A stretch of 64,000 nt of DNA from positions 96,001 through 160,000 of IMG/VR virus record IMGVR_UViG_3300024054_000008, one strand, 5' to 3'. Numbering within the stretch: the stretch's first letter is position 1; every line of letters starts with the position of its first letter. The stretch comes from a virus. Positions 7,800 through 62,572 of this stretch are shown in pieces. The notes under the pieces were generated by a model. That model saw only the letters and a program-made list of their open reading frames with translations. It did not search any database and was not told where the DNA came from. The translations under genes and the position numbers were made by a program.

Positions 7800-8207
7800 T
7801 CAACCTTCAATTATGTTTTGAATTGATTTTGCAGATTGATCTGCTAAAATTGGATAATGTTTAGGGTCATTACCCAACACAAAATAAAATTTGAACTTTA
7901 TATTGCCCATCTGTTCAATACCGACAGTATCTATATTACATAATGAGTAAAGATCATCACGTGTTATATTCGATATACGGCCAAAACAAACAAGCTCATA
8001 CGCCATTCTACTTAAACGGAACAATTCCAAAAAATAAATATTTGGTTTATCGAACATTTCTCTACGAGCAACCTTTTGAATATGTGAATATATCTTGTTT
8101 ACAAAATATTCTTTATCCAATTTGTGTGGAATAATAGTTAATAATCCATCTCTAACAAAAAATTCCCATGTCTTATTGTAGTGAGTCGAAGTATAATCAT
8201 GATTCAT
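7800..8207 (-). CDS. hypothetical protein with the shared C-terminal motif (IQNIIEG)
   Basis: leaderless promoter pattern fixes the start at 8207. Confidence 0.55.
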   Translation of the reverse strand: MNHDYTSTHYNKTWEFFVRDGLLTIIPHKLDKEYFVNKIYSHIQKVARREMFDKPNIYFLELFRLSRMAYELVCFGRISNITRDDLYSLCNIDTVGIEQMGNIKFKFYFVLGNDPKHYPILADQSAKSIQNIIEG

Positions 8208-8246
8208 AAACAATATTACATAAAAATTAATGTTATTTACATAAAA

Positions 8247-8999
8247 TTATCCTAGTTTATCATAATTAGGAGCAACCGTTTTTGTTTCTTCAATTTTCAG
8301 CTTAGCTTCTTTAAGTATATCATTTATATCTTTTCTCCTCATAAATTTAATTATATCTTTTACTGGGTCATCAGTTCTTTGAGATACGCTTATATCACCA
8401 CCAATAACTTCTAAGTTATAATCCCAAATAAGCGTATCAATTAATATCTCAGCTTCAAACTGGTCACCTATATCAACATTAATTTGGAGTGGGTTAACCT
8501 CAAACACGTCCCACCCTTTATCCTTCATACGTTTCTTCAGACCTTCAATGGTTGTTTTTTCGAATTCGTTCTGACGTTTAGCTACTCTATTTGCACAAAC
8601 ATCAAGAAACGCAAAAAGAGTCAAAGAAACGGCGAGACGACGAAGTATTTTTACTGAATTATTGTCTATCAAACCAGAAGCTATTTGTCTCAATATTTTC
8701 GAAACCGTCTTTGGTTTCAAAGACGTCATTTTAGTAAGAAATTCTTCACCAACTCCAGTCCCAATAAACTCAACAAGAGTCCGGAGCGGATCATGGGTTA
8801 TTTCTTCTATTGAATCAGATGCGTCATCTTTAGCATTAACTTTAACTTCGTATAATACTTCATCTGGGATAATGGTTAACTTAATTACACCACGGTATGT
8901 AGCAACAATCTTACCTGTTTCTTTGTCATCTTCAAGAATTTTGAAATTCTTGTCATTCAAAAAATCGAAAACAAACTTTGGTGGTGTTAAATTTGGCAT
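8247..8999 (-). CDS. hypothetical protein with internal ILRQIAS module
   Basis: 250 aa ORF. Confidence 0.55.
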   Translation of the reverse strand: MPNLTPPKFVFDFLNDKNFKILEDDKETGKIVATYRGVIKLTIIPDEVLYEVKVNAKDDASDSIEEITHDPLRTLVEFIGTGVGEEFLTKMTSLKPKTVSKILRQIASGLIDNNSVKILRRLAVSLTLFAFLDVCANRVAKRQNEFEKTTIEGLKKRMKDKGWDVFEVNPLQINVDIGDQFEAEILIDTLIWDYNLEVIGGDISVSQRTDDPVKDIIKFMRRKDINDILKEAKLKIEETKTVAPNYDKLG

Positions 9000-9028
9000 A
9001 TTAACATTTTATATTTTGTAACAAAAAT

Positions 9029-9742
9029 CTATTCAATTGAATTACTATTAATAGTTTGTTCAGGAACTCCGAACCCAAATACATAAGAAACTACCTTTTC
9101 GACCTGATAATGCAAACATGGTACGTCAAAATTATTGTCTATGATGAAATTGAATTCAGAGTCAGGTATTGTCGATTGCTCAATTTCAGATCTATGATCA
9201 AATGGTGGTTTTTGTATTGAAGGTCTCTTGATTCTAATTAAGACCGGAATAAATTTATCAGATTTAAATACCAACGGGCGCTTTATGTCATGCCAGTGTC
9301 TAAAGTCAGAAAAAACAGTTATTACTGGAGAACTTATTGGGTAACAAATGTTTTCTTGACTAGAAATTAAACCAACTATCTTTGAATAACTGTATTTAAA
9401 TACATAATCGTCTTTAAATATATCAACATCGGCTATGTCCATTGCAATTGATAGACCTTTGTCAATCCAAGTATATGAATACATGTCTTGCATAATCCTC
9501 ATATACTCCTGTAGAATATGCCTTGGTGTTAGTCCGTACCTTGAGTCTAATTTGTTTCTGTTCTCAGACGGGCCAAACATTTGATCAACTGTAAATTGAT
9601 ATAAATCCATCACGTGACGTTTTGCTACGTCTGCCAATCCTATGTGGATGGCATTATGTTTTTCAACCAAAGGTTTTACACATTCATCTTTGCCAACTCC
9701 GGAATAACCAGAAAAGGCAAACATGTAATGTTTTGGAATCAT
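9029..9742 (-). CDS. deoxynucleoside monophosphate kinase
   Basis: FSGYSGVGKD P-loop, GLADVAK, TPRHILQ and SDFRH motifs typical of T4 gp1-like kinases. Confidence 0.75.
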   Translation of the reverse strand: MIPKHYMFAFSGYSGVGKDECVKPLVEKHNAIHIGLADVAKRHVMDLYQFTVDQMFGPSENRNKLDSRYGLTPRHILQEYMRIMQDMYSYTWIDKGLSIAMDIADVDIFKDDYVFKYSYSKIVGLISSQENICYPISSPVITVFSDFRHWHDIKRPLVFKSDKFIPVLIRIKRPSIQKPPFDHRSEIEQSTIPDSEFNFIIDNNFDVPCLHYQVEKVVSYVFGFGVPEQTINSNSIE

Positions 9743-10242
9743 CCAAAACATTACATCAATTCAATACTGATGTACAAACTAACTTTGATGTTGTCGAATT
9801 TTCAATCTCAAATATTATAGCTTCATCCTCATTCCAATGGGTTTGCATAAAATTGCTTTCATCTTGGAAAGAATTCCAACAACACAAACAAACTATTGCA
9901 TAATTCATATCTTGGCTACAAGTTAGCCATCTGACAGTACAATTTTTGTCACAAAAATCACAATCACCAGTTTCTGGGTTCCAAAGTATTTGAACCATCC
10001 AACAAAATTGTTTGAATAAAGAGCGACCGAATTGATGAAACATTTATGCAATTATTTTGACTTTAATCCTTTTTCAATTAAATCAACTAAAGTTTTCATG
10101 CCAGTCGCTAAGTCAGACTCATTCAATTTAAAATTTCCTATAGACGAATTCCTTCTTTTGAATTCGTTAGACACGGAATCCAACAATTCCATTAATTCTT
10201 GATCGGACATATCTTTGAGTGATTTTAAAAGTAAACCATCGA

Positions 10243-14039: not shown

Positions 14040-14897
14040 TCAATCATTTAACAAAGCACTATATGATTGAAGTTGCGGTGCGTCTTCTTGCTTAGGTTGT
14101 GAAGAACCGCCTCCAAGTCTCTCTATGAGATTTTCTTTCTTCATGGCAAAACCAAGATGATCAGGTGTGTATTTCCTGGCTCTCAAACCTTGGTCCAAAA
14201 CCCACTGTCTAATTTCTGGATCGACGTCTTCACGAGCCCAATACGCAGAAGCAAGCTTCGAAATCATTTGCTTTTGATACTTTGCATCACCATCTAACGA
14301 AACTTTCAAATCTATGACTTCTTGCTTGTCTTCGCGAGCCGTTTTGTAAGCAACTTCAACTTGCTTATATTTTTTCCAATTCAAACGCCAAACATAAAAG
14401 TTAATTTGCTTTTTACGTTTAAACGTCTCAACGTCAACTGCAAAATCTTCGTCGACAGGATATGTCATAATTGCTACCGCAACTGTCTGATCTGCATCTT
14501 CCAATTGCCGACAACAAATTTCGGGTTTGACAAGCGTGGTTCCGCTGTATTCGCTCAAACAACGAATAAAACCAACACCATCACCGAAATGTGTGAAAGC
14601 CACAGAAAACTTTGGCTTTGTTATATTAAGCCTATCTGCATCTGTCAGTTCATTAGGTTTTTTGTTTAACTTTTCAGCCAAATTCTTGTCAATTTTGTCT
14701 ATAAATTCAGCTTTTTCCTTGTCGGTTAAAGCTGAACCTTTTTCTTTAGTTTTATCAGCCAAAATCGATTCGTGAAATGTTTTGAATGAAACAACTGAAA
14801 CTCTATGGGTTTCATTTTTGTTTTGAACAAATTTTTCTATGCCAGTCTGCTTAATAACCTTGCCGTCATCAAATCCGAAATCCATTATATCACTCAT
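14040..14897 (-). CDS. putative single-stranded DNA-binding protein
   Basis: located in the recombination operon; gp32-like layout and size; weak recognition. Confidence 0.4.
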   Translation of the reverse strand: MSDIMDFGFDDGKVIKQTGIEKFVQNKNETHRVSVVSFKTFHESILADKTKEKGSALTDKEKAEFIDKIDKNLAEKLNKKPNELTDADRLNITKPKFSVAFTHFGDGVGFIRCLSEYSGTTLVKPEICCRQLEDADQTVAVAIMTYPVDEDFAVDVETFKRKKQINFYVWRLNWKKYKQVEVAYKTAREDKQEVIDLKVSLDGDAKYQKQMISKLASAYWAREDVDPEIRQWVLDQGLRARKYTPDHLGFAMKKENLIERLGGGSSQPKQEDAPQLQSYSALLND

Positions 14898-14993: not shown

Positions 14994-15767
14994 TCAATCT
15001 TCCAAAAGCGAACGATAGTTTATGTTGTTTGTAGGTTGAATCTCTGGTAATTTCTGTTCATCTTGATTGTTTTGTGTTTTAGATGTGTTAATCAACTGTG
15101 ATGTTCTGTTATAGAATGCGGATAATTGAGACAAATGAACTTTGTCTATTGGTTCAGGTATGTCTTCAGGCCTAGATTTTGGATCCAATAAATCAGTTGG
15201 ATCAATCTTCGCTATAGTAACAACTGGTGGCAAACCACCAGGAACAGTCCCATCTTTATTCACACTTGGAGGGATATATGAACCATCAAATGGATTAAGC
15301 TCTTCTTTTACCATTTGTCTTTGCAATCTTATGTCATTGTTGGTACTTCTCAAATGATCATATTTATGTTTGATTATTTTAACAGTTTCTTCCAAATCAA
15401 GAAGTTCTAATTTTTTCTCATTTAAATTTTTATGCTCAACAGAGAGCTTATAAATTACCATAGCTTCGCGATCTCGTATGTTTGGCATACGACGTACGCT
15501 TTCATCATCGGCCAAAAGCCTTTTACTTTTGAAATCAATATCAAGTTCTAATTCTTTAACTTCTAATTTTAAATTTCTCTCTTTTTGTCTGACTAAACCA
15601 AGATAATATTGAACTCGATTTAAATAATTTCTACATGAACTCAAAATTTTGTGTAAGTATTTACTTTGTAGATGCGGCTGTGTAGGGTCTGGTTCAATTC
15701 CAACTTCGTAAGTTGAAATTTCATTTAGTATCTGCTCCAATCTTTCTGATGACAAATCATCAATCAT
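14994..15767 (-). CDS. coiled-coil protein (possible recombination mediator)
   Basis: heptad-rich sequence; recombination operon context. Confidence 0.4.
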   Translation of the reverse strand: MIDDLSSERLEQILNEISTYEVGIEPDPTQPHLQSKYLHKILSSCRNYLNRVQYYLGLVRQKERNLKLEVKELELDIDFKSKRLLADDESVRRMPNIRDREAMVIYKLSVEHKNLNEKKLELLDLEETVKIIKHKYDHLRSTNNDIRLQRQMVKEELNPFDGSYIPPSVNKDGTVPGGLPPVVTIAKIDPTDLLDPKSRPEDIPEPIDKVHLSQLSAFYNRTSQLINTSKTQNNQDEQKLPEIQPTNNINYRSLLED

Positions 15768-18180: not shown

Positions 18181-18591
18181 TCAGTTGTCTTTTTCAATTT
18201 TATTAAAAATTTCGCTTACTTTGTTGACTTGGTCTAAAGCTTTCTTCAAAACAATCTCAGCATTTCCTTCATCTGGTCCATAGCATCCTATCAATGAATC
18301 TAATTTTACCAGATTTCCAGTTGTTGGATGAACCGGAACCAAATTTGGCAACGCCTTGTCAAATAAATGTTGTATCGGAATGTTGTCTGAACCATTTAAA
18401 GATTCAGGAGAAGTTGGGCTAAGACCAGTTTGAAACATGCCCCATTCTTTTATTTGGAAAATAATTACCTGCGGCTTTCCATCAATTACCTCAAGGTAAG
18501 CACAATGCCATCCAGGGATGGCCTGCAATTTGGCTGCGATAGGAAGACTAGAAACAGACTTTAAATAGTTTTTTATTGAATCAATATCCAT
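18181..18591 (-). CDS. hypothetical protein
   Basis: leaderless promoter pattern before ATG 18591. Confidence 0.5.
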   Translation of the reverse strand: MDIDSIKNYLKSVSSLPIAAKLQAIPGWHCAYLEVIDGKPQVIIFQIKEWGMFQTGLSPTSPESLNGSDNIPIQHLFDKALPNLVPVHPTTGNLVKLDSLIGCYGPDEGNAEIVLKKALDQVNKVSEIFNKIEKDN

Positions 18592-18728
18592 GTTAAACAT
18601 TACAATGAATAAAGATAAAGATAAAGATTTTCACCATCTATTAGACATATTAATACCATTGTTTATTTATGGAACGTTGGCATTTATTTTAATAGATGGT
18701 GAATTAAAACTAATTAAAAACAAAGTAA

Positions 18729-19013
18729 CTAAGATTCAACAACGTCTTCACAATATATTAAATCACGACAAAAATGACAAATCGGAAACCTAAATTTAAA
18801 TTTACTTGTAGTAAACCACGCTGGTCTATAAAACTCAACATCAACAACGTTTTCCAAGTCTGCTGTATTAAATTTCCAATCCAAATCGCTGTGTTTAGCT
18901 GCTAAATCGCGCAATATTTCTACTATGGTCGAAAATCTATCGGCATAAATTTTTATGTTAGCAACATCTCTATTTAATAACTCGTCATAAAAATCTCTAA
19001 TTATGTTGTTCAT
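18729..19013 (-). CDS. hypothetical protein with the shared C-terminal motif (EDVVES)
   Basis: ORF track; C-terminal motif. Confidence 0.55.
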   Translation of the reverse strand: MNNIIRDFYDELLNRDVANIKIYADRFSTIVEILRDLAAKHSDLDWKFNTADLENVVDVEFYRPAWFTTSKFKFRFPICHFCRDLIYCEDVVES

Positions 19014-22441: not shown

Positions 22442-22978
22442 TTATGATATAATTATATATTCGGTCATAAGTTCATTTATTTTTTGTTTATCTTCAACAC
22501 ACCATAAAAGCGGGTCTGGAATTTTGGCCAGCTCTTCAAGCATCTGATAAAATCTTGAGTTAAAAACCATTTTGTGACCATTCAAATATTTTATGAACTC
22601 GATAAACGAATCCATGACATGATCCGGGTAATCATTACAAAATTTGGTACTATACCGATTGCACATAAATCTAGATATCAATTCATTAAGATAATATACA
22701 AACGGAGAATCGAGATTAAAATCAGCCGATAGGCGAGTTCTTAACATTTTATCTTTCAATATTACCGAATAGAGTTCCGTGTCATTAAATATAAATCTAT
22801 ATATAGATTTGCATTCAATATTCTCAACATGCAATAATCCGCCAAATTTCATATCAAAAAATGATTGTAAAGACCTTTTGACATTTTCAGTACTTGGTTT
22901 ATTTTTAAATACTACAAGACATCTTGTACCTTTCGGTTCGAGATGCGAAATAAACATATTTCTATTAAGTTTGGACAC
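22442..22978 (-). CDS. hypothetical protein
   Basis: ORF track. Confidence 0.5.
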   Translation of the reverse strand: MSKLNRNMFISHLEPKGTRCLVVFKNKPSTENVKRSLQSFFDMKFGGLLHVENIECKSIYRFIFNDTELYSVILKDKMLRTRLSADFNLDSPFVYYLNELISRFMCNRYSTKFCNDYPDHVMDSFIEFIKYLNGHKMVFNSRFYQMLEELAKIPDPLLWCVEDKQKINELMTEYIIIS

Positions 22979-24195: not shown

Positions 24196-25143
24196 ATGGC
24201 GTATAGTTACAATACCAATAATACACCAGCTACTGGATCAGTATCTATATATACATTTAAAGAATTGCTAAAAACAGCTGGGTGGACTGTCATGAGTTCA
24301 AGTGATGGAACCACTTATAATTCATCTGGTGATCAAATAACATCAGGGTCATCAGGTGCTAACGGCATGGCTAACAACTCTGCTTGGTTTCGAATACGCA
24401 TGCCATCAACAGACGGGGTTACACGTGAATACACTTTTCAGAGGGGGACAACAAATGTGGCTTGGCGCATAAAATATAGTTATTCAGCTGGATTCACGGG
24501 CGGATCACCAGGAGCAACACAAACTCCATCAGCAACAGATGAACAGACATTATTTGGTGGCGGAACAGACGCGGCACCAAGCTTTTCAACATTGTTTGGA
24601 ACTGATGCTGGGTATAGGTTTAACGTAATAGCCGGCGGATCAGCAGAAGGGTATGTGTTCTTCGCTTTTGGATTCCCGAATGGCGGCGGTACTCCAACTA
24701 ATTATATGTTTATTGAACGAATGTCAACAGGCTCATTTCCGACATCAAACGTAGAACCGTATGTTATGAAATTTGCTAATAGTTCGCCAACTGTTTCAGA
24801 GATAACGTCAACTACAATTGGTCCAAAAGGCTGGCTGGCAAAAGGGCTGGCTGGTGAGGGGTTCGTGTTTATACCAGCTGACAGTATGACGGATAACACT
24901 TCAACAATGCAAAAAGCATTAGGAGCAAATTCGTATACAGGAATTGATGATTTGCTTCCAATCTTATATGCACGACGTTCTGCATTAGGGGCTCCGTCGG
25001 GTTATATGGGTATAGGATCAATGTTAAGATATCCAAGCACAACTAGAACGACTGGTGATACATATACAATTAGTTCAACTAGAGATCGTATTGTAGTTGG
25101 AGACGTGGTCGTTCCTTGGGACGGTTCAACACCAACAATATAA
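24196..25143 (+). CDS. Gly/Ser/Thr-rich putative virion or tail protein, paralog 1
   Basis: beta-rich composition; strong similarity to 25432-26403. Confidence 0.55.
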   Translation: MAYSYNTNNTPATGSVSIYTFKELLKTAGWTVMSSSDGTTYNSSGDQITSGSSGANGMANNSAWFRIRMPSTDGVTREYTFQRGTTNVAWRIKYSYSAGFTGGSPGATQTPSATDEQTLFGGGTDAAPSFSTLFGTDAGYRFNVIAGGSAEGYVFFAFGFPNGGGTPTNYMFIERMSTGSFPTSNVEPYVMKFANSSPTVSEITSTTIGPKGWLAKGLAGEGFVFIPADSMTDNTSTMQKALGANSYTGIDDLLPILYARRSALGAPSGYMGIGSMLRYPSTTRTTGDTYTISSTRDRIVVGDVVVPWDGSTPTI

Positions 25144-25145: not shown

Positions 25146-25432
25146 TGGCAACCGCTGTTTCAGGCTCAAATTATTCATCACCAACGTCTTTGTTGGCAAC
25201 AATAGGACCAGTTCCTGGTGATGATTTGAAGTTTGGTGGAAGAGTTGCTGTTAAATATTTTCGTATGAGAGCCGTTGACGCGAACGCAGCAACATCACCG
25301 CCGACATACAGAACGTGGACAGTAAAAAACGACCCAGACTACACAGGTGCACAATATACAGGACAATATAGTGGAGCATCACCAAACTTAACGTCAATAG
25401 TAATACAAGATACAATAGAAGTTGAAGAGTAA
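25146..25432 (+). CDS. small putative virion protein between the paralogs
   Basis: ATG at 25146; tightly packed. Confidence 0.5.
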
Positions 25433-39432: not shown

Positions 39433-39487
39433 AATTTTGGAACCTTATGGAAGGCTTCCAGGGCTACACCGTTACTGTATCATGAAA

Positions 39488-43875: not shown

Positions 43876-43877
43876 TA

Positions 43878-45177: not shown

Positions 45178-45393
45178 GTGTGTGCCCCATCAGTTCTGAG
45201 CGCTTCTTTCTCTTCGAGACGCTTGGCTCTCCGGTTCAGGTACTTCTTGATGCGCCGTGTGACTTTGCTCGGCCCGTGGGGAAAGAGACGGCTGGACACG
45301 GTCCCACCATCCTCGAAATTGGCAATCTTCTTGTAATTGCTCATGTATCCACCTATGTTCAGTACGTCCGGAGCGGGCCGAGCTTCGTTTTAT

Positions 45394-45729
45394 CTAAGAT
45401 GCAAAAATTGACAACGTCTTCAAAAAATCTTCAGTCAGATCGCAAATTGGAACAAACATCGTGTCACGTGAATATTCATGTACGACTAGTTTATTGCGTG
45501 CTGCTACTCTGTCAACTGCTACTCTGTCAAATAGCGACTTCATTTTTGGCATACACAGAAGACAAACAGCTTTCACGCAACCATCTTTAGTCAATTGGAT
45601 TTCACCCTTTGATGTGTGAACGAGAATGAAAATATCGTTGTTAATCTCATGATGTGAAATCACGAGTTGTGTTTTAGAACACACCAATTCGACTTTTCCG
45701 AACTTGGCCTCGAATTCATTAAGTTTCAT
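45394..45729 (-). CDS. LxEFxxKYG paralog family protein
   Basis: MKLNEFEAKFGKVELVC...CLLC. Confidence 0.55.
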   Translation of the reverse strand: MKLNEFEAKFGKVELVCSKTQLVISHHEINNDIFILVHTSKGEIQLTKDGCVKAVCLLCMPKMKSLFDRVAVDRVAARNKLVVHEYSRDTMFVPICDLTEDFLKTLSIFAS

Positions 45730-45950
45730 GCTTCGAGCATCTCCGAAACATCATTTAGTTTATTGGCTTCGCAGCAGGCCTCCAAGTAAGTGTACAGAGA
45801 ACCAACCACGTACTCGCTGGATGTAAGAAGATGACCTTCGATGACTGGTCTGTGATGACCAGATCGGTCAACGACCACGTACCAGCACTTCTTTGGTATG
45901 TAGGGCTTTGTCCTAATAGGAACGTTTCCTATCATTCTTGCACAACATTG

Positions 45951-46034
45951 TGGGCCAGGTGGGACTCGAACCCACAAACCCGAGGGTGGTAGTTTATGAG
46001 ACTACTGCGTTTGAACCTGTTCCGCCACTGGCCC
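45951..46034 (-). tRNA. tRNA with CAT anticodon and long variable arm, probably Ile2 (lysidine)
   Basis: acceptor GGGCCAG/CTGGCCC with C4-G69 and C5-G68, A73; loop CTCATAA; 13-nt variable arm; tilS nearby. Confidence 0.8.
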
Positions 46035-46063
46035 ATTAGACTATACAGTTAACACGCTATGGT

Positions 46064-46363
46064 TTACGCATTCAGCACTTGATTTGCTTTGAACTCCGCC
46101 CAAGTCACTTCCTTGACTTTCTGGTCGAAAATCAAGAAGACTCTGTCGCTCGTGACACTTGGTGAGTCTAAAACTTTTCCAGTAATGAATTCAACGCCAG
46201 GTTTAAGCCATGAAGCGTCGTAAACTTTCTGAGCCGTTTCTTCTGAAATCTCAGCGACTTTGTACCAACGCCAAATCGACCCAGGCAGATGATCTTTTTT
46301 AAGATTTAAGACGATGTGAAAGCTTACCTTTGGTTTCGGTTGTGTCACTCGCGCCTCTGGCAA
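46064..46363 (-). CDS. hypothetical protein inside the tRNA array (ends NQVLNA)
   Basis: ORF track. Confidence 0.45.
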   Translation of the reverse strand: MPEARVTQPKPKVSFHIVLNLKKDHLPGSIWRWYKVAEISEETAQKVYDASWLKPGVEFITGKVLDSPSVTSDRVFLIFDQKVKEVTWAEFKANQVLNA

Positions 46364-46406
46364 TGGTACGTCGGGCCGGGCTCGGTTTGCGTTTGTCGGA
46401 AATTTG

Positions 46407-46477
46407 TTGGGGCACTAGGATTCGAACCTAGATTCGAGGCTCCAAAGGCCTCTGTTCTGCCATTGAACTATGCCCCA
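46407..46477 (-). tRNA. tRNA-Gln(TTG)
   Basis: TGGGGCA/TGCCCCA acceptor; loop CTTTGGA. Confidence 0.9.
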
Positions 46478-46482
46478 AATTG

Positions 46483-46557
46483 TCGGAGTGGAGGGATTTG
46501 AACCCACGGTCCTCTCGGACCCAAACCGAGCGCTCTGCCAGACTGAGCTACACTCCG
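46483..46557 (-). tRNA. tRNA-Pro(TGG)
   Basis: CGGAGTG/CACTCCG acceptor; loop TTTGGGT. Confidence 0.92.
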
Positions 46558-46561
46558 ATAG

Positions 46562-46633
46562 AGCCCTATAGCGGACTTGCGCCGCTCTCTGAGGTTTACA
46601 AAACCACTGCATCGCTATCTATGCTTATAGGGC
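46562..46633 (-). tRNA. tRNA-Thr(TGT), atypical T loop
   Basis: GCCCTAT/ATAGGGC acceptor; loop TTTGTAA; T loop CGCAAGT. Confidence 0.8.
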
Positions 46634-46637
46634 TTAG

Positions 46638-46710
46638 CACCCCCAGAGAGATTCGAACTCCCGACCAAAAGGTTAGAAACCTTCTGCTCTTTCCACTGAG
46701 CTATGGGGGC
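46638..46710 (-). tRNA. tRNA-Arg(TCT)
   Basis: GCCCCCA/TGGGGGT acceptor; loop TTTCTAA. Confidence 0.92.
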
Positions 46711-46772
46711 AAACTGAAGCGGGCGCCACCCGCGTGCTGTAGTCGACACACCTCCTTTCAGTTCATTAGAGT

Positions 46773-47459
46773 TTAAGAATCTTTTTTATCTTTGACTATC
46801 TTATCCAGTGCTTCATTTTCAGTTTCTGACAAGAATTTGCGAACTTCGCTCAAATCAGGTTTCGATTTGAGCCAAATACTCAAAATGTCCGGAGCGTCTT
46901 TTGCTTCGCGGCTTGGATTGTTTACCAAGGCCTGGACTTTGAGCCCAATCAGCGCGGCTGCTGAAACTACCGGGACTTTATGCCCGAGAACCATGTGCTC
47001 TTCAGCTGTTGACAATGCCAATTGTTTGAGTGGGTCAGTTGCGGTCAACAATTCGACTTGGCCGTTCTTTCGATGGTCGATAGTCAGGACTGTCCCAGTG
47101 CTTGATTTTGCTTTGTAAAAAGCAAATTTTTCCATGTATCGTGGGTCGCTGAGTTTGTCAGACGGTGGCAACTCTGAGACCAGAACGTCAATGTCGTCGG
47201 TGTTACGGATTACGCCATGAATAATCAATGCAACAGCGCCAATAACAGCAAAATCAATTTGATTGTCCTTCAAAAGATTTGACAAACCAGACATCACAGA
47301 TGATTCTGGGACTGAACCATGTAAAGAACGACCACGAAGTTCGTGCACAGCTTCAATGATTTCGTCAGCTTCTTTTTCGTGTCCATAGTCGTCAGCAATC
47401 TTGTGAGCAATCCGCACAAGGTTTTGCATCAACTCTGAGCTGTTTCTGAATTCAGTCAC
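46773..47459 (-). CDS. nucleotidyltransferase (AbiEii/DUF6036-like fold) embedded in the tRNA array
   Basis: FAVIGAVAL...RNTDDIDVLV (GG-like...DxD), LIGLK and KDAPDI motifs. Confidence 0.7.
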   Translation of the reverse strand: MTEFRNSSELMQNLVRIAHKIADDYGHEKEADEIIEAVHELRGRSLHGSVPESSVMSGLSNLLKDNQIDFAVIGAVALIIHGVIRNTDDIDVLVSELPPSDKLSDPRYMEKFAFYKAKSSTGTVLTIDHRKNGQVELLTATDPLKQLALSTAEEHMVLGHKVPVVSAAALIGLKVQALVNNPSREAKDAPDILSIWLKSKPDLSEVRKFLSETENEALDKIVKDKKDS

Positions 47460-47474
47460 GTCGAACTCATTTTG

Positions 47475-47559
47475 CGGAGAATGAGGGATTCGAACCCCCG
47501 GTACGTTGCCGTACGGCGGTTTTCAAAACCGCTGCCTTAGACCACTCGGCCAATTCTCC
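47475..47559 (-). tRNA. tRNA-Ser(TGA)
   Basis: GGAGAAT/ATTCTCC acceptor; long variable arm; loop TTTGAAA; G73. Confidence 0.92.
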
Positions 47560-47560
47560 G

Positions 47561-47632
47561 TGACCCCAGCGAGAATCGAACTCGCCTTTACGGGATGAAA
47601 ACCCGTTGTCCTGACCGATAGACGATGGGGCC
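47561..47632 (-). tRNA. tRNA-Glu(TTC)
   Basis: GGCCCCA/TGGGGTC acceptor; loop TTTTCAT. Confidence 0.9.
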
Positions 47633-49175: not shown

Positions 49176-49442
49176 TTACGATTCTACCACTTCTTGTGCT
49201 TTGTTGAGCTCCATCCTTAGCTTCAACCCCTCCAAATGTCCATCAACGATGATGGCGCCGGTCGCAGGAAATGAATTAACGATGTAGTCACCTTCTTTTA
49301 GGTGAAACGTGTCATCCGGTTCCGGCCTTCGTACAACACAAACGCAGTTATTTTCTTTCACCCAGGTTTCGTTATCATACAACGGTTGCATTTCCCACCG
49401 TTGGGACTTCAGATTGAAGTAGACCAAATGGCGTATCACCAA
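49176..49442 (-). CDS. hypothetical protein with the shared C-terminal motif (QEVVES)
   Basis: ORF track. Confidence 0.55.
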   Translation of the reverse strand: MVIRHLVYFNLKSQRWEMQPLYDNETWVKENNCVCVVRRPEPDDTFHLKEGDYIVNSFPATGAIIVDGHLEGLKLRMELNKAQEVVES

Positions 49443-49573: not shown

Positions 49574-50664
49574 TTGCCGCCTCCAATGCTCAGTACGAGC
49601 GGCAGTCAACAATTTACACCGTCCGGGTTAGTCACGGAAGATCCGACATCGATTCCGTCCCAAGCATACTCAAGAACTGGTGACCTCCAGAACCGCCAGG
49701 AGCTGTTCTGCATCTTCGCGACTCAACATCCCCTTATGGGTGACGCGTGGTCTCGGAGGGTCCGGAGGAGCAAGCATTGGCACATGCTTAGAGCATACAC
49801 GGATAAGATCCATACCACCGGACCGTGACCTCGTGGCGATGGTGACAGTATCATGAGAGCAGTCTCCGTACCGCCTAAGGTAACATCTGATTTCGGTCAC
49901 GCTATCCTCCGTCTAGGTTTCCTTTGGAAGCATTTCTACCTTGATCGTAAGCAAAATCATTCGCTCCCATTCGTGCTCGCAATCACCGCAGTAGAAAGAA
50001 TGGCTCATAGGTTCGTTTGCAAGCGGATAGCTCAAATATGAGTCTGAGAGATCGTATTTGACAAGCGCCCCGCAATTTGGGCACTTATCTTCCAGAGAAA
50101 ATCCGGGAACGTAGAACCGCTTGACGTCAATTTCCATCGCAAACCTCAGCGCGGATTTCCCGCTTGCCGGCTTGACGAACCTTGGTTTCGATTGCCTTCT
50201 CCAGGGCGTTTGCAGCACGGACGGTCATCCGTGTACCATGACGGCGTACACAATACTTTGCGTATGATTCTTGACCAGTTGCCTTCTTGCCGACCTTCAT
50301 GTCTGTCTCCAGCTTTGGTACGTCCGCGCCAGCGTAGCTTACGCTTGTTGTGTCGTATCGGCCAGTGGAGGCGTGCAATGTCCGCTGAGAAATATTTTGA
50401 TAAGCACATCCACCACGCTGCCCAGCGTCTTGGTTTCGGACAAGACTTTGAAAACGTCGTAAATCATCTTGTGACGTTGGTCGGAACTTACGAGACCGCT
50501 CATCTCATCGCAAAGGCAGCCCAGGTCTATCTTGCTTGGGAAATCACTTCGGAAAACCACCAGCCTGAGTCCGGCCGGTCGTAAGTCGGCCGTCAGGCGG
50601 CGTATCTGCTGTTGGGCGACGGACGGCGCGGTGCCGCCCCGGTCCCACTCTGAGAGAACCACCC

Positions 50665-52345: not shown

Positions 52346-53095
52346 TCAGCCAGTCATGACAGACTTTGTGGCCGCAAAGTCGATGGCTTGCTGAATCACG
52401 TCGTCATTGATCAATTCTAGGAGCCTTGGGTTGCGATTGAAATAGGCGGCCATGTCACCAATACTAAGTCGGTCCTTAGCCTTGTTCAGAGCAACCATCA
52501 ATTCCCGTGATGGTGGGTTTGCAGCTGATTCTTCGCAAATTCTGACAAAAACCCGACCGAGATTATCAGAACAAATGGCACCTGTAGCTTTGTAATATTC
52601 GACAATCAATGATAATTCTTTGAGTTCCAAGTCACCGCTAAGCCACTTGGCAAAAGTCTGAATGACGCGTAGTCTAGTTTTATCAGCGTCAGTTACGTAT
52701 TTCTTTTCTTGCTTTTCTTTGTGTTTTCTGATGATTCCTTCTTTTTGAGAATCAAATTTTTCCATCAATTCACGAATATCGTTGATAAGTTTTTCTTTTC
52801 TTTCTAGATAAACTTTGGCATTGAGCTTGACGTTAAAATAATAACTGCTTTCTAATTTTTCACTATTGTTACAGTGAAGTATTTCCTGGCCTGGCAACAA
52901 AACAATTGGATACACAAAGTTGGTGATTTTCCCGTATTTATCTGATGACGACGTCAAGCGGTTGCTACTCGTTCCAACAGTCGAAATCATAACTCCCTTA
53001 ACCAGCCCTTGTTCCCAAGCAGGAAGATTGCTAAACTCCAGAAATTCTTCATCAGAGAATTCTGGGAATTCTTCACGCTTGTAAAGCTCAGTCAT
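52346..53095 (-). CDS. hypothetical protein with the shared C-terminal motif (KSVMTG)
   Basis: 249 aa ORF. Confidence 0.55.
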   Translation of the reverse strand: MTELYKREEFPEFSDEEFLEFSNLPAWEQGLVKGVMISTVGTSSNRLTSSSDKYGKITNFVYPIVLLPGQEILHCNNSEKLESSYYFNVKLNAKVYLERKEKLINDIRELMEKFDSQKEGIIRKHKEKQEKKYVTDADKTRLRVIQTFAKWLSGDLELKELSLIVEYYKATGAICSDNLGRVFVRICEESAANPPSRELMVALNKAKDRLSIGDMAAYFNRNPRLLELINDDVIQQAIDFAATKSVMTG

Positions 53096-56736: not shown

Positions 56737-57547
56737 TAGTACCTCCACCGCTGGTACGCATCGCCAGGTGCTAGTTCCAGTCAGCGATAAATTTTGTCAA
56801 CTTGAACTTCACGTACTTCAAAACTTACACCAGATTCGAGCTTTGGTGCCAGTAAACAAAGTATATCATTCACGGTTTTCTTCTTGTAAACCTCAGTTCT
56901 CCCATCAACCGTGACTAAAATTTGATTTTTACGATTCGTCCGCAAGCCCAACCTTCTTTCTGTAGTCTTTCCAGGCCTCGAAGCATTCTTCGGGTGTTAG
57001 ATTAGCACGTACTTCAAACGCTGTTCCGCGTTTACTTGCAAACACCCTCCAATTTTCGCCCTCCCAAATCCAATTTCTGGCCGAACCAGTCCAAGTGAAC
57101 TTTTGCCTTCCCAATCGTGATTTGTGGAATTTAACAGCACCATCTTTGTTGGAGGCCATGTGCATCTGCATGGTTTGGTCTCTATATGTTTTGAATTCCG
57201 TATCAGATAACACTCGAACATCGATCAAATTGATCATTGGCGTACTTTCCCATTCGAATTGATTCATGATTTGATCAACTCCTCTGTCAGGTATTGATCT
57301 GTTTTCGACTCTGCATATTTTTTGGCTTTTTGAAGCAATGCTGCCAATCCGCAACCTTCATCAAAAAAGTCTTTAACAGCTATTTGCTTAAAAGGGCTGA
57401 ACACGTTTACACGAAGATAATTCGGCTTTCTAAAATGACGTATATTTGCAGCTAAATACCGTGTATTTTTCAGATCGGAGCAGAAAGCATAACATTTTAT
57501 GTCATCGTCGTATGTTTTTTGTTTATTAGACTTCCAAATAAGTTGTT

Positions 57548-57931
57548 TCATGCTTCCAAAACCTGCTTTGCCTGCATCTGTGCAAGCCACTCTCGTCCAC
57601 GATCTTCGGCCGCAGCAATCCGCTCCAAAATGCGAATCAGGACGTCTTTGGTCGTTCCAACTCGCAAAATACGAGGGAATTTACCAATCCCAACGATTCG
57701 CCCGTCTGCGCGTTCGTAAACGGTGCAGACCTTGATGGCGTCCTGGCCACATTTCCGAACTGATGGGTTACCGACTGCAATACTTGTATACACTTTCACA
57801 ATCACGCGGTTACAGTGTGCCTGTGGCTTCTCGTACACCACTTCGTTTCCGTAGATTGTGCGCTGGAAACCTTTGAGTTGGAGCAGACGCTCGATGTCTT
57901 CAGAAGAAACCTGGACGTAAAGAGCCATATT
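57548..57931 (-). CDS. hypothetical protein with the shared C-terminal motif (KQVLEA)
   Basis: VKVYTSI...GQDAIKV motif. Confidence 0.55.
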   Translation of the reverse strand, partial: NMALYVQVSSEDIERLLQLKGFQRTIYGNEVVYEKPQAHCNRVIVKVYTSIAVGNPSVRKCGQDAIKVCTVYERADGRIVGIGKFPRILRVGTTKDVLIRILERIAAAEDRGREWLAQMQAKQVLEA

Positions 57932-58432
57932 CTTCTCCTTACCGGCCAATACGGCGAGCGGCAGCCGATTTCGCTTAATTAATGTACGCGCAAACGAAAA
58001 CGACGGATATTCGTGTGTATCTTGTTAGTGTCTAAACGTACAAACGACCAACCCAAGTGTTGCGTCTGTCGCGGATTGGCTGAATTTGTACAGACTAACG
58101 AATTTATTAATCATAACCTGTACAAATACTTGTGTAAATCTTGCGTGCTAAATTCCGAAATTGTGTACTATATTACAATATTGATGAATATTATACCAAA
58201 TGCTTACTTGACAGTTAATACGACATAAATTTAACTTGTATGGTTAGCATATTTGGCAGATATAATATGTCTCCAAAATCTGTTGGTTGTAAATTCCAAC
58301 GTTATCACAGTAGGTAATTAGATGACTGAATACGAAAAGCAAGAAGAGTATCAGGACAACGAATACGACGAGGGTGATTCGGACAACGGAAACAGGCGCC
58401 AGCCACGCGTACCGATGCGTGGAGGTGAGACA

Positions 58433-58667: not shown

Positions 58668-58997
58668 GAGTATTTGGAATGGCAAAGCCTTTAAAGCCAA
58701 TTTCTCAAATTGAACCTAAAATTGACACTTTTGTAAAATTGGCTGAATCGTCTAAAAAGACTCTTGCTTTCAGTTCGTTTAGATTTAATGGGAAAATATT
58801 CAAGATTTACTATTATAAATTTGCAAAGAACCTGTCAATTCACACGGAAAAAATCGCATATTCAAAAAATGCGTGGACTTGGACCAAAAAACAAGAATTC
58901 AAAGATGTCGAAGTTACGAGTTTAAAATTTATGATTATGAATCATGTTTACGAAATATTTAAGAATGAATACGAACAAGATACAAAGGAGATCATAG

Positions 58998-59546
58998 ATG
59001 CTTGACTGCATTATCACAGTCAAAGGCAACGGAGTTGGTAAATACGGTCGTTCAAAGAAAGACAGAACCGGCTATGTCTCTGAATTTTGTGTTGATAACA
59101 CATTTTTTTATAGAGCAATTTTCAAACATTTGAAGGAATGTAATAAATGCGACCCGAATGATGTTCTAAAAACACTCTTGTTTCGTCGCAAAGACGGGCT
59201 TGTAACCGGGAGCCTGGCGGAACTTGCAGTAAAATACAAAAGAAATTTCCAATCAACTGATTGGCTCCTTGTCGAAGAGTACATCTGTAGATGTATAGAT
59301 AGCCGTGTCATCCTCAAATATTTGAATAACTTCGAATATGAACAAATCCCGAACTTTTATCGTAAATTCCATTCTTTCGGCCCTCAAAGATTTTCGGGGC
59401 TTAAAATGGATCGATTGGATATAGAATCTGAACAGGTATTTGTATTCATAAAGCTTTATATTCAATATTGTACAGTCACGACTTTACCAGAAAGCAATGA
59501 TGAACTAATGGAATTGATTAAAACTTCTGAAGTTCTCGAAAGCTGA
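58998..59546 (+). CDS. hypothetical protein with the shared C-terminal motif (SEVLES)
   Basis: ORF track. Confidence 0.55.
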   Translation: MLDCIITVKGNGVGKYGRSKKDRTGYVSEFCVDNTFFYRAIFKHLKECNKCDPNDVLKTLLFRRKDGLVTGSLAELAVKYKRNFQSTDWLLVEEYICRCIDSRVILKYLNNFEYEQIPNFYRKFHSFGPQRFSGLKMDRLDIESEQVFVFIKLYIQYCTVTTLPESNDELMELIKTSEVLES

Positions 59547-59598: not shown

Positions 59599-60630
59599 AT
59601 GCCTTTGACCATCGGTGAAACGAAACTTGTTCAAGGCTCGGCACGAGAGCCCTACAAAGTCAAAAACTGTGACGGCACGATCTTTTCCTGCACCTGTCCG
59701 GGGTGGAGGAATTCCCCAGGGTCAGTCGACCAGAAAACGTGCAAACACACGAAGCCAGAAAAACTGGCTTACATGACAGCAATTGGTGCGCCAATTCCGG
59801 CGGTCACAGCGGTTCCGGTTGCAAAGCCTGCAACGAAGAAATCAGTTTCCAAAGCCTCAATTGAGTCGTCAGAAGCACCTGTTCTTTTGGCACAGGCCTG
59901 GGAATCAAACATCGACCCAGATGGCTGGTGGATGTCCATCAAAATGGACGGAATAAGGGCATTTTTCAATGGAAAAGATTTCATCTCCAGACTTGGCAAC
60001 AAATTTGAGGTTCCTGATTGGTTTAAATCTGGTTTACCAGATGTCCCACTTGATGGTGAATTATGGATTGGTAGAAAATCTTTCCAAGAAACTGTCAGCA
60101 TTGTAAAGCGAAAAGACCAATCAGGTGATTGGTCCAAGATAAAATTTATGGTTTTTGATGCACCAACATTAAACAAACCGTTCGAACAGAGATTGCAAGA
60201 TCTTCAAAATCTGATCTCAAATGCAAATTATGCTCAGTATGTTGAGCACACCAAATGCACTGGTCGTGACCATCTGCAGCAAGAATTGCAGAAAGTAACG
60301 CTTCTTGGTGATGAAGGATTAATGTTAAGGAAACCAAATTCTATGTACGAAGTTGGTAGAAGTTCAACTCTTTTAAAAGTTAAAATTTTTCACGACGAAG
60401 AAGCACTTGTTATTGGTCATTCGCCAGGCAAAGGAAAACACAAAGGAAAATTGGGCGCACTGATTTGTTCTTTAAATGATATTCAATTCAATGTTGGATC
60501 TGGGTTTACTGATGAACAAAGATTAAATCCACCACCGATCGGTTCAAAGATCGTATTTGCATATCAAGAAAAAACCAAAGACAATGTTCCACGTTTCCCG
60601 GTGTTTCTTAGAACGTTTATTGAAATGTAA
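59599..60630 (+). CDS. ATP-dependent DNA ligase with N-terminal SWIM-type zinc finger
   Basis: CTCPGW...TCKH; motif I IKMDG; DGELW, FMVFD, EGLMLR, LLKVK and PRFPVF. Confidence 0.9.
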   Translation: MPLTIGETKLVQGSAREPYKVKNCDGTIFSCTCPGWRNSPGSVDQKTCKHTKPEKLAYMTAIGAPIPAVTAVPVAKPATKKSVSKASIESSEAPVLLAQAWESNIDPDGWWMSIKMDGIRAFFNGKDFISRLGNKFEVPDWFKSGLPDVPLDGELWIGRKSFQETVSIVKRKDQSGDWSKIKFMVFDAPTLNKPFEQRLQDLQNLISNANYAQYVEHTKCTGRDHLQQELQKVTLLGDEGLMLRKPNSMYEVGRSSTLLKVKIFHDEEALVIGHSPGKGKHKGKLGALICSLNDIQFNVGSGFTDEQRLNPPPIGSKIVFAYQEKTKDNVPRFPVFLRTFIEM

Positions 60631-60637
60631 AGGTGGA

Positions 60638-61501
60638 ATGGACATAGTGAAGAATGTTATATATGGGTCTTTATTAGGCGATGCATCGATATCAAAAGAC
60701 AAAACAACGTTTAAATTCAAAGTTGCCCACTCCGAAAAACAACTTGAATACGTGAAATGGAAAGCAAAAATTTTGGGGACAAAGAAACTTTTCAATAGGA
60801 AAAGTGGCTATGGGTCAAACATATTTGGGATAAATTATTATAATTTAGAACTTCTTGATGAAGTTTATAATAACTGTATTAAAAACAACAGAAAGACAGT
60901 CACAAACGAATGGCTAATGAATTTGGACGAATTGGCTTTAGCAATTTGGTATCAAGATGATGGTTCTTGGAGTAAATGCGGAAACTTAAGAAATGGTGAA
61001 AATCAGCAACGACGTTCTTCTTTTTCAGTTTGTGGCTTTGATGAAAACTCAGTAACATTGTTATCAAATTGGCTTAAATCAAAATTTGGCTTAAAATCAA
61101 GACTAGTTTTAAGAAAATCTAAATACTGGATGTTGGAATTGTATCATACTTCTACAATTAAATTATGGAAAATAGTTGCTCCATATTTAGTTATAAAGAC
61201 TAAAATTGATCTTAAGGGATTAAAGATAAAATCTGGCAGAAAATCTTGGGTAAACATCCAAGAAATTGGTGAAATCGCAAGATTTCTAGAGAAAAATTTT
61301 AAACATCCAATCAAAAAAAGGGTGTTGAGACCAAATAAACATAGTAAAGCCTGCAGATTTCTAGAACTAAACGGTAAGGTGCATTCAATTAAAGAATGGG
61401 CGCAAATAACTGGATTAAAAAGACACGTAATAACAAAGCGGTTAAAACAAAGACTTCCAATGGAAGTCGTATTAGCTAAAAATGTAATCGACTACGAATG
61501 A
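60638..61501 (+). CDS. free-standing LAGLIDADG homing endonuclease with small C-terminal DNA-binding domain
   Basis: IYGSLLGDASI and LAIWYQDDGS motifs. Confidence 0.85.
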   Translation: MDIVKNVIYGSLLGDASISKDKTTFKFKVAHSEKQLEYVKWKAKILGTKKLFNRKSGYGSNIFGINYYNLELLDEVYNNCIKNNRKTVTNEWLMNLDELALAIWYQDDGSWSKCGNLRNGENQQRRSSFSVCGFDENSVTLLSNWLKSKFGLKSRLVLRKSKYWMLELYHTSTIKLWKIVAPYLVIKTKIDLKGLKIKSGRKSWVNIQEIGEIARFLEKNFKHPIKKRVLRPNKHSKACRFLELNGKVHSIKEWAQITGLKRHVITKRLKQRLPMEVVLAKNVIDYE

Positions 61502-61893
61502 GTTATCACGACATTCTCAAGCAAGTTGATGAGTTGTCAAGGTACAACCAAGAAGCATTGTTATCTTATCTCAGAAAGAAGTTTGAAAATATCAGAAGAG
61601 ATGAAAAATTTCAAAGAAGGGTTGCGAAAAACAACTTGGCAAAAGACGGCAAGTTGCGTCTACATGCCATTTGTAAATTGGCTGGGATAGAAGTGAACGA
61701 CCGGTGTACCCGTCCAGCAGGATATTATGGTTGGGCGAGTTTTTCCCCAATGTCAATAAACATTAGAATCACTATTGACGGCAAACGTTGCAAGATGGTC
61801 AGATTAGAACTTAAAAAAGACGATTCAGTTCTAGCCGACAAATTCAAAAAAATTGCTGACGAACTTACTGCTGAAGCGGTGGTTGAGTCATGA
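61498..61893 (+). CDS. hypothetical protein with the shared C-terminal motif (EAVVES)
   Basis: ORF track; stop overlaps the next start. Confidence 0.55.
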   Translation: MSYHDILKQVDELSRYNQEALLSYLRKKFENIRRDEKFQRRVAKNNLAKDGKLRLHAICKLAGIEVNDRCTRPAGYYGWASFSPMSINIRITIDGKRCKMVRLELKKDDSVLADKFKKIADELTAEAVVES

Positions 61894-62189
61894 CCAATGA
61901 GGAAGCAAAACAGATTATTGTTGAAACTGTTACAAGCCTTCAAGGTTGTAAAGCTACTGAGCTTGTATCAGACAAGCGGATGGTCGAAGTAGCAACGTTA
62001 ATCAACACTTTAGAACTATCTGCGTTAATCGATCAACTTGTTGAAGAAGGAAAATTGGTTGAAATCGAATATGAACTCAATCAACTTCATTACAGGACTA
62101 AAAGTTTTCTACTACCGGGCGATGTGAAAATTATTGGTAGTAAGAAATTCATACGTGAACTCACGACTGAAGATTTGGTTGAGTCATGA
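61890..62189 (+). CDS. winged-helix-like protein with the shared C-terminal motif (EDLVES)
   Basis: LIDQLVEEGKLVEIEY. Confidence 0.55.
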   Translation: MTNEEAKQIIVETVTSLQGCKATELVSDKRMVEVATLINTLELSALIDQLVEEGKLVEIEYELNQLHYRTKSFLLPGDVKIIGSKKFIRELTTEDLVES

Positions 62190-62572
62190 GAATTTACGGT
62201 GAAAAAGTTTACGAGGGAACCGTAGTCTTTTCTAGAGAGAACAAAACGTACGAAGGCGTAATTAGGCCGATAAACGTTCCGCAAGAACGCTATGTTACTG
62301 TGAATGGCCTTGAGTTAAATCCAAGGCATGATTTGAGGAATCATTCCCCAGATGGATTCAATTGGGGCTACAGTGGTTCTGGGCCAACACAACTGGCCCT
62401 AGCAATTTTAGCCGACCATTTGAACAACGATGAAGAGGTATTGAGTTTATATACAAAGTTCAGAGATATATTTGTTTCAAAGCTTGAAATGACGAAAGGT
62501 TGGACTGTTACGTCAAGCCAAATCCAACAGATTGTTGATTTGCTATCTACTGCAGATGTTGTAAATTCATAA
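62186..62572 (+). CDS. conserved hypothetical protein (NHSPDGFNWGYSGSGPTQLALAIL family) with the shared C-terminal motif (ADVVNS)
   Basis: motif recalled as DUF6166-like. Confidence 0.6.
   Translation: MRIYGEKVYEGTVVFSRENKTYEGVIRPINVPQERYVTVNGLELNPRHDLRNHSPDGFNWGYSGSGPTQLALAILADHLNNDEEVLSLYTKFRDIFVSKLEMTKGWTVTSSQIQQIVDLLSTADVVNS

Follow-up and report, generated by a model that had tools for sequence, protein, structure and literature searches.

The window analysed here is a 64,000-nucleotide stretch of DNA spanning bases 96001-160000 of a viral contig of 182,739 bp. The contig, whose completeness is ~43% (CheckV) and whose GC content is mosaic (33-53%), encodes a terminase, a 1915-amino-acid (aa) portal-containing protein, a collagen-like fibre, a ribonucleotide reductase, RecA, a RuvC-like resolvase, ThyX, two kinds of DNA ligase and a clamp-loader subunit, and the window carries eight transfer RNA (tRNA) genes. 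About a sixth of this phage's proteins, mostly without other resemblance to one another, end in a common short C-terminal tail, here called the tag. This tail is the subject of the analysis, and it is probably a portable address or docking signal for a common, co-evolving partner.

The C-terminal tail and the open reading frames that carry it

The initial annotation had listed 23 open reading frames (ORFs) with such an ending. All 23 are present where it had placed them and end as it had described, and its count of more than 20 is exceeded: 29 ORFs of the window are tagged, with at least 6 bits or a place in that list as the rule of inclusion, and a few others are borderline. They are given below with window coordinates, strand, length and last residues, bits being the score of a weight matrix.

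6840-7082 (+): possible tagged ORF, 80 aa, coding status uncertain; ends LTQELIND; 7.1 bits, class 'other'
7075-7437 (+): tagged ORF, 120 aa; ends EKTNELIGS; 13.4 bits; absent from the initial list
7800-8213 (-): tagged ORF, 137 aa, weak form; ends SIQNIIEG; 6.6 bits; homologue in G001 ends SVLDVVI
18729-19013 (-): tagged ORF, 94 aa; ends YCEDVVES; 16.3 bits
21580-22017 (+): tagged ORF, 145 aa, next gene convergent; ends AVIDVIES; 13.6 bits; homologue in G005 ends CHNVMNN
22442-22978 (-): borderline tail, 178 aa; ends MTEYIIIS; 2.8 bits
23020-23493 (+): tagged ORF, 157 aa; ends KTRQVITG; 15.0 bits
26400-26609 (-): tagged ORF, 69 aa, tail to tail (convergent) with gene 25432-26403; ends AVKEVVEG; 16.3 bits
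26622-26810 (-): tagged ORF, 62 aa; ends HAKDVVES; 16.3 bits
27368-27784 (-): tagged ORF, 138 aa; ends ATHEVVLG; 15.0 bits
27781-28128 (-): tagged ORF, 115 aa; ends KTISVLES; 16.1 bits
28146-28505 (+): tagged ORF, 119 aa, convergent with 28494-28724; ends KTKELLEL; 11.6 bits; absent from the initial list
28721-29176 (-): tagged ORF, 151 aa; ends KTHEIVSE; 7.0 bits
29596-29880 (-): tagged ORF, 94 aa, weak form; ends KTRDIVLD; 4.4 bits
36176-36727 (-): borderline tail, 183 aa; ends KTEYLVNC; 3.7 bits
37670-38107 (-): tagged ORF, 145 aa, in the GC-rich stretch; ends KAEEVLKG; 15.7 bits; called as a gene on an independent assembly
42309-42584 (+): possible tagged ORF, 91 aa, coding status uncertain; ends DIRELLDA; 6.6 bits, class 'other'
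44582-44845 (-): tagged ORF, 87 aa; ends YTQEVLES; 16.7 bits; called on six other contigs; orthologue in G001 ends HTQELLES
45726-45977 (-): tagged ORF, 83 aa (longest start); ends DVSEMLEA; 7.8 bits; homologue in L161 ends EVSNVMGS
46064-46363 (-): tagged ORF, 99 aa; ends KANQVLNA; 13.4 bits; called as a gene on an independent assembly
49176-49442 (-): tagged ORF, 88 aa; ends KAQEVVES; 18.9 bits; called as a gene on an independent assembly
49670-49900 (-): borderline tail, 76 aa; ends AVLEVTSS; 5.9 bits; called as a gene on an independent assembly
52346-53095 (-): tagged ORF, 249 aa; ends ATKSVMTG; 13.8 bits
53099-53479 (-): tagged ORF, at most 126 aa (true start probably further in), weak form; ends STCEILHG; 6.2 bits
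53413-53784 (-): tagged ORF, 123 aa, masked in the greedy calls by a long plus-strand ORF; ends ETQELVES; 16.2 bits; homologue in G001 ends NVQEVVEG
57264-57590 (-): tagged ORF, at most 108 aa; ends LTEELIKS; 14.8 bits; absent from the initial list
57548-57949 (-): tagged ORF, 133 aa; ends QAKQVLEA; 16.1 bits; orthologue in G007 (42% identity, aligned to the end) ends TVKKVMGA
58679-59005 (+): tagged ORF, 108 aa; ends DTKEIIDA; 13.2 bits
58998-59546 (+): tagged ORF, 182 aa, consensus form; ends KTSEVLES; 19.0 bits; homologues in the M dialect (see below) end RVSSVMNS and LTSEVMCS
61498-61893 (+): tagged ORF, 131 aa; ends TAEAVVES; 14.1 bits
61890-62189 (+): tagged ORF, 99 aa; ends TTEDLVES; 15.6 bits
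62186-62572 (+): tagged protein with a DUF6166 domain (Pfam, E=1e-26), 128 aa; ends STADVVNS

Counts were made on greedy ORF calls over the whole contig (n=276), and tail residues are numbered backward from the C-terminus, −1 being the last. The strict pattern [TAS]x[EDQSN][VILM][VILM][EDNQ][SGA]-stop occurs in 19 ORFs against 0.04 expected from its frequency inside the same proteins, and the looser pattern [EDQSNA][VILM][VILM]x[SGA]-stop in 37 against 1.1. Shuffling of the C-termini, a check proposed in the initial annotation, bore out this excess: with the last 30 residues shuffled 2000 times, the 37 observed matches compare with a mean of 1.0 and a maximum of 6, and the same procedure confined to the window gave a mean of 0.45 and a maximum of 4 against 19 observed. 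A nine-column weight matrix with a threshold of at least 6 bits retrieves 44 of the 276 called ORFs (about 0.3 expected), 0.11% of internal windows and 2 of 439 shadow ORFs, one of which is evidently a real gene. Furthermore, a motif-free test of C-termini shows an excess of T(−7), E(−5), V(−4), I(−3), E(−2) and S(−1), the p values ranging from 6e-4 to 5e-14.

The contrast between called and shadow ORFs makes the tail a cheap marker for separating real small genes from spurious ORFs in annotation. From about 32000 to 57000 the window is GC-rich (45-54% vs 33-38% elsewhere) and packed with small minus-strand genes; longest-ORF calling yields spurious opposite-strand ORFs there, and the tag helps to pick out the real small ones. 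Several tagged ORFs of this region are called as genes by an independent gene caller on another assembly.

The tail extends over about 12-16 residues and ends in K-T-x-(E/D)-(V/I)-(V/I/L)-(E/D/N)-(S/G/A)-COOH; some tails read TEEVVDS or TEDVVDG. Beyond the seven residues of the initial annotation, K is favoured at −8, acidic residues at −10, −11 and −14, and hydrophobic ones at −9, −13 and −16. Glycine is rare, the net charge is acidic, V occupies position −4 in 28 of 37 tails, and proline is missing from the last 16 residues of all 37, whereas 47% of untagged ORFs have one there. In an AlphaFold2 model of the DUF6166 protein (61 homologues), the tail forms the end of a helix of residues 110-127 with a predicted local distance difference test (pLDDT) score of ~80. 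Both the lack of proline and this model favour the earlier suggestion that the motif follows an amphipathic helix.

In every case the motif is read in frame, and its distance from the stop codon, and hence from the free C-terminus, is constant. We compared the last eight codons of the 37 tagged genes. Third codon positions carry 0.08-0.50 bits, second positions up to 2.0 bits; synonymous codon use in the tail equals that of the genome, and the terminal serine is written with TCN in 18 cases and with AGY in five. Because third positions are uninformative and serine is drawn from two codon families, selection acts on the peptide and not on the DNA, as had been suggested from the differing codons.

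These data also dispose of the idea that the pattern arises as an artefact at the DNA level, from a ribosome-binding site or translational-coupling signal of the next gene that is read through the end of the upstream one. Although 17 of the 37 tagged genes overlap or abut the next start, and the commonest stop is TGA, often inside TCATGA, such a signal requires a start within about 15 nucleotides, and 16 of the 37 have no adjacent same-strand gene downstream (a convergent gene in 10 cases, a gap of more than 40 nucleotides in six). Some tagged genes abut tail to tail, both partners being tagged where genome 17850-18209 (+) meets 18210-18965 (−), and the acidic and hydrophobic classes are kept despite codon change. 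Gene context and codon pattern together thus exclude the ribosome-binding-site explanation, whose probability we regard as practically nil.

Carriers and dialects of the tag

Searches with DNA and protein found no close relative of this virus among cultured phages; its terminase is 44% identical to that of the uncultured huge phage LR745208 and 28% identical to that of Tunturiibacter phage Tunturi_5. RecA served to identify relatives, among them G005, G007 and G008, three genomes of 362-393 kb that are complete and have terminal repeats. The nearest relative is G001, and G006 is complete but distant.

That the tagged proteins have no other similarity, as the initial annotation had it, holds at the level of BLASTP: after removal of the last 12 residues, a comparison among 56 loosely tagged proteins gave a single pair at E<1e-3. 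The Pfam domains of carriers are different or none, and carrier paralogy or a common C-terminal domain family was rejected as the source of the tail. Most tagged proteins have no match in Pfam and PHROGs, and a homologue search with a tagged 208-aa protein matched only itself. The carriers are soluble and very diverse, with zinc-ribbon-like, strongly basic and strongly acidic proteins among them and no membrane helices.

The further statement that no recognisable enzyme is tagged is correct for RecA, ThyX, the ligase and TilS of the window but fails genome-wide, as a RecD2-type helicase of 750 aa outside the window (genome 73083-75335) ends KTEDVVDG. Within the window, too, a recognisable domain carries the tail, that of the DUF6166 protein, in which the domain is followed by the tail. 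Orthologues of the helicase in G001, G005 and G008 have no tail, and neither has any of the 119 listed homologues of the DUF6166 protein from bacteria and metagenomes. Judged from these comparisons of sequences, the tail has been added onto unrelated domains, including horizontally acquired ones.

A homologue in G001 is found for 6 of 43 tagged ORFs vs 81 of 233 untagged ones. Where orthologues are both tagged, conservation is highest in the tail: proteins that are 32% identical overall agree in 11 of their last 14 residues. The tag is retained, although the set of genes that bear it turns over. Carriers occur in AT-rich and GC-rich stretches of the window alike, and they are distributed unevenly along the contig, with five tagged ORFs in bases 0-96 kb, the structural half, vs 34 in 96-183 kb. 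In the complete relative G005 they cluster toward the genome ends (14-110 kb and 303-389 kb). With the exception of a few recognisable domains, the carriers are nearly all small, fast-turning-over accessory proteins in gene arrays whose early type is read from genome position.

Accessory, fast-evolving carriers would be expected if the tail were a cargo-loading signal, by which anti-defence factors are loaded into the capsid or another phage-built compartment for co-injection. Encapsulin and microcompartment peptides and the T4 capsid targeting sequence offer precedents, each equipping many unrelated proteins with one short terminal, often helical, peptide that docks on a single shell or scaffold partner. 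The tag motif, however, differs from these peptides, and the T4 signal is N-terminal and removed by the head protease, whereas the tag is C-terminal. Tagged genes lie in small-gene arrays at a distance from the structural module and show no connection with a head protease or scaffold, the phage is not known to build a compartment, and a virion that packs more than 40-70 different cargo proteins would be unusual. We consider cargo loading improbable as the function of the tag.

The tail is not the same in all related phages but comes in dialects, which are distributed over genomes and loci as follows.

TxEV[VIL]ES: G000, G001, L132
[VI]-x-[KR]-[VI]-M-E-S (the M dialect): G005, G007, G002, G003, L123, L129, L130, L161
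..[VI]K[DE]II[ET], ..II-x-x-II[EDN] and ..N[YW]x[LM][LM]x: loci with a more distant DUF2201 (see below), from huge phages less closely related

In G005 the residues in excess by the motif-free test are V/I at −7, K/R at −5, V/I at −4, M at −3, E at −2 and S at −1; M stands at −3 in 70 ORFs vs 12.4 expected (p=6e-31) and S at −1 in 102 vs 41. The enrichment in G002, G003 and G007 resembles that in G005. In G008 only methionine at −3 is enriched (22 vs 9.6 expected), with about a dozen tails of the VM/IM type, and no tag was found in the distant G006. About eight orthologous families follow the dialect of their own genome, T being replaced by V/I at −7 and V/I/L by M at −3 (KTSEVLES/RVSSVMNS, QAKQVLEA/TVKKVMGA, RTESVLSS/RVEIVMKS and KRTREVIDG/KKVRKVMES). 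Orthologues change dialect together with their genome.

This concerted change bears on an explanation that needs no reader at all. The tail could act by itself, as a helix end that makes small orphan proteins more stable or protects their C-terminus against exoproteolysis, and could have spread through convergence or through recombination of a C-terminal module. In Escherichia coli, polar or charged C-termini are known to have a stabilising effect on proteins, and the modelled helix end of the DUF6166 protein as well as the scarcity of proline and glycine would suit such a role. A generic cap, however, has no use for V at −4 in 28 of 37 tails or for M at −3 in 43 of 43 tails of G005, nor would it switch dialect genome-wide in orthologues, and spread by recombination is unsupported because the DNA is not conserved. 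The same positions change together on many unrelated proteins, which is predicted by a shared co-evolving reader and not by a generic stabilising cap; we consider the cap improbable.

Candidate readers and neighbouring genes

Among the partners that the initial annotation had considered were Clp proteases and PDZ/Tsp proteins. Neither finds support. ClpP is encoded in none of five related phage genomes, one of them complete, the phage encodes no ClpX or ClpP, and the same five genomes gave no PDZ match in a search with PDZ_2, one of three PDZ models in Pfam. A phage-encoded ClpP or PDZ reader was rejected on these results. The tail, moreover, ends in an acidic and a small polar residue (E/D/N, then S/G/A), and has neither the non-polar end of a degron nor the hydrophobic last residue of a PDZ ligand; the bacterial C-terminal degrons and PDZ/Tsp ligands known to us end non-polar (e.g. 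LAA).

A wider degron explanation would have a host protease (ClpXP, ClpAP, Lon or FtsH) or a phage-directed adaptor clear early accessory proteins together at a set time, with dialects that track hosts. Shared C-terminal degrons such as ssrA are well established, many small proteins carry the tag at their very C-terminus and are encoded in early-type arrays, which in G005 lie near the genome ends, and the dialects differ between lineages. We nevertheless consider it unlikely, given the lack of phage ClpP, the polar end of the tail and the presence of the tag on the RecD2 helicase and on basic, nucleic-acid-binding-like proteins.

For a docking tag with a common partner, two neighbouring genes provide a candidate. 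Just beyond the window, among tagged genes, lie a MoxR-type AAA+ ATPase of 377 aa (genome 164080-165213 (+)) and a DUF2201 protein of 518 aa (genome 166420-167976 (+)), which comprises a zincin HExxH domain and a VWA domain with a complete metal-ion-dependent adhesion site (MIDAS). The pair is found inside tagged clusters in G000, G001, G005, G007, G008 and L123 (in L123, ~22 of the ~40 ORFs around it carry the tail) and is absent from the complete, untagged, distant relative G006. HExxH..H and the MIDAS residues DxSxS..T..D are invariant in an alignment of 101 DUF2201 homologues. The AlphaFold2 model of the protein, with a pLDDT of 88, has a C-terminal domain that matches the ligand-binding VWA/I-domains of CMG2, TEM8 and integrin alpha-M. 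In these receptors an acidic side chain of the ligand completes the MIDAS metal, and in the complement convertase the C-terminal carboxylate of C3b does so. DUF2201 itself is essentially uncharacterised in the literature.

As to which protein reads the tag, the phage's own MoxR ATPase and DUF2201 protein are the most likely candidate, put forward tentatively as a guess of low probability. The conserved acid at −2 or the terminal carboxylate would be the ligand of the MIDAS metal in DUF2201, a groove beside this metal would take the hydrophobic pair at −4/−3, MoxR would supply force and the zincin domain might cut. The closest described analogue is formed by the vWA-MoxR peptide-processing modules, in which the vWA MIDAS was proposed to capture an extended peptide that MoxR then remodels, and zincin peptidases to process small proteins that diverge rapidly but keep a conserved C-terminal peptide (Kaur et al. 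2020, PMC7159879). Both systems combine (i) small, fast-diverging proteins with a C-terminal peptide as their only conserved part and (ii) a zincin peptidase, a vWA protein with MIDAS and a MoxR ATPase in one neighbourhood, and in both the processing is putative. The phage system differs from those modules in that zincin and vWA are fused in one protein, that each genome has dozens of carriers, many of them full-size folded proteins, that the peptide is TxEVVES or VxxVMES and not one of the types FxSxx-COOH, RxD, acidic run or FtsH-associated, and that Pfam calls in the neighbourhood include no radical-SAM or AP-ATPase partner. Furthermore, its setting is a lytic huge phage, that of the described modules a bacterial conflict system.

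Several observations weigh against this assignment. About 60 of 80 DUF2201 neighbourhoods in IMG/VR have no common tails, nearly all of them with less than 33% identity to the DUF2201 described here. Common tails were found only at loci with an identity of at least ~33% and at none of the ~45 with 30% or less, so the link between DUF2201 and the tag is specific to this clade. The pair, being far more widespread than the tag, is not sufficient for it, and their co-occurrence is confounded by phylogeny. The place of the pair inside tagged clusters may only reflect that it is an early gene pair; the temporal class of tagged genes is itself deduced from genome position only, and a simple k-mer search upstream of genes gave no usable promoter motif. 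A helix is predicted for the tail, but a MIDAS usually binds loops or extended peptides. Finally, it is fully possible that the reader is a host protein.

A weaker, second candidate is a stand-alone BRCT protein (genome 171445-171846 (−)), kept inside tagged clusters in G005, G008 and L123. It is a paralogue of the BRCT domain in the NAD-dependent DNA ligase of the phage, an enzyme split over two divergent genes, genome 75345-76136 (−) with the adenylation and OB domains and 76750-77826 (+) with the HhH and BRCT domains; the HhH-BRCT half adjoins the RecD2 helicase. The C-terminus of MoxR was considered as a tag-like element in its own right. Its sequence in G000 and G001 is T-R-x-V-[IL]-K-[GS] followed by one additional Lys, and at offset 1 the scores are 8.7 and 6.2 bits (rank 2-3 of 530). 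The resemblance is weak, the same helix is kept throughout the MoxR subfamily, and four more residues follow it in L123; the idea of a tag-like MoxR end was set aside.

Other systems in which one site serves many terminal peptides resemble the tag less closely. The eukaryotic peroxisomal signal PTS1 (SKL-COOH, bound by the tetratricopeptide repeats (TPR) of Pex5) and the EEVD-COOH end of Hsp70/Hsp90 (bound by TPR clamps) are likewise fixed to the free carboxylate and serve many clients of one receptor, but the tag is longer and predicted to be helical. The SspB XB tail (LRVVK-COOH), which binds the ClpX N-domain, and the ssrA degron tether proteins to an AAA+ machine through a C-terminal hydrophobic pair; the tag differs in register and end residues, and ClpX and ClpP are lacking, as noted above.

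In replication, short C-terminal peptides also share single sites: T7 gp2.5 and gp4 on the polymerase, T4 gp43, gp33 and gp55 on the gp45 clamp, the tails of single-stranded DNA-binding protein (SSB), and QLxLF on the beta-clamp. These tails are confined to a handful of DNA-handling proteins, whereas 15-20% of the proteome is tagged here, mostly orphans, and the tag lacks a terminal aromatic or hydrophobic residue. A better fit to this class is a second, distinct tail, [ST/N]-Y-x-x-L-L-(K/E/D), with which two core proteins of different families (15% identity) end after a low-complexity linker. Their genes, at 14040-14897 (−) and 14994-15767 (−) of the window, adjoin those of the RuvC-like resolvase and RecA. 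This SYxxLL-type tail is kept in five of five related genomes, is unaffected by the dialect of the tag, and looks like a tail of the SSB or clamp-binding type that docks on the replisome or a recombinase.

Further features of the contig stand apart from the tag. Two neighbouring paralogues of ~320 aa at 24196-25143 (+) and 25432-26403 (+) of the window have near-identical C-termini of another type (..VPWDGSTPTI and ..APWNGSTPIT). An ATP-dependent DNA ligase gene (59599-60630 (+)) is directly followed by a LAGLIDADG homing endonuclease gene (60557-61501 (+)); the ligase is called with 285 or 343 aa in near-identical strains from other samples, which indicates that the junction of the two genes varies. 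The 1915-aa protein (genome 46098-51845 (−)) matches portal proteins in its C-terminal part and, weakly, the large subunit of a glycyl-radical-type reductase in its N-terminal half; it is an unusually large portal fusion, with 72-77% identity in relatives. One of the eight tRNA genes, at window 6253-6327 (+), has the anticodon CTA of an amber suppressor (labelled Pyl by ARAGORN), and the rarest stop codon among the ORF calls is TAG; the other seven lie at 39359-47632.

The tag as a probable address signal

Considering (i) the selection on the peptide, (ii) its presence on unrelated and acquired carriers, (iii) its retention despite gene turnover and (iv) the concerted switching of dialects, the core proposal of the initial annotation, a peptide-level, phage-wide C-terminal address tag read by a common partner, is supported. 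In such a system one common partner, its pocket co-evolving with the tag, would bind all tagged proteins by the tail and handle them as one group, that is recruit, remodel, clip or clear them. Searches of the literature found no description of such a tag.

A bolder form of this proposal, which we think unlikely, is that the huge-phage clade runs a proteome-wide sorting code. A label of 7-16 C-terminal residues would mark every accessory and host-takeover protein for one phage-encoded AAA+ machine, with MoxR and the zincin-VWA protein as reader, which recruits, remodels or removes them as a group, and tag and reader would co-evolve into mutually exclusive dialects. If so, dialects could keep genes from other phages inactive until these acquire the local tag.

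If one partner reads the tag, a single peptide would open the "dark" accessory proteome of huge phages to experiment, as a handle with which dozens of orphan proteins could be pulled down, localised or destabilised simultaneously and their hub found. The compact, portable tag and its cognate reader could also serve as a tool. With a single reader, the tag would furthermore be a rare virus-wide linear sorting signal in bacteria, and its dialects would constitute a natural experiment in the co-evolution of tag and reader and possibly a barrier to gene exchange between phages.

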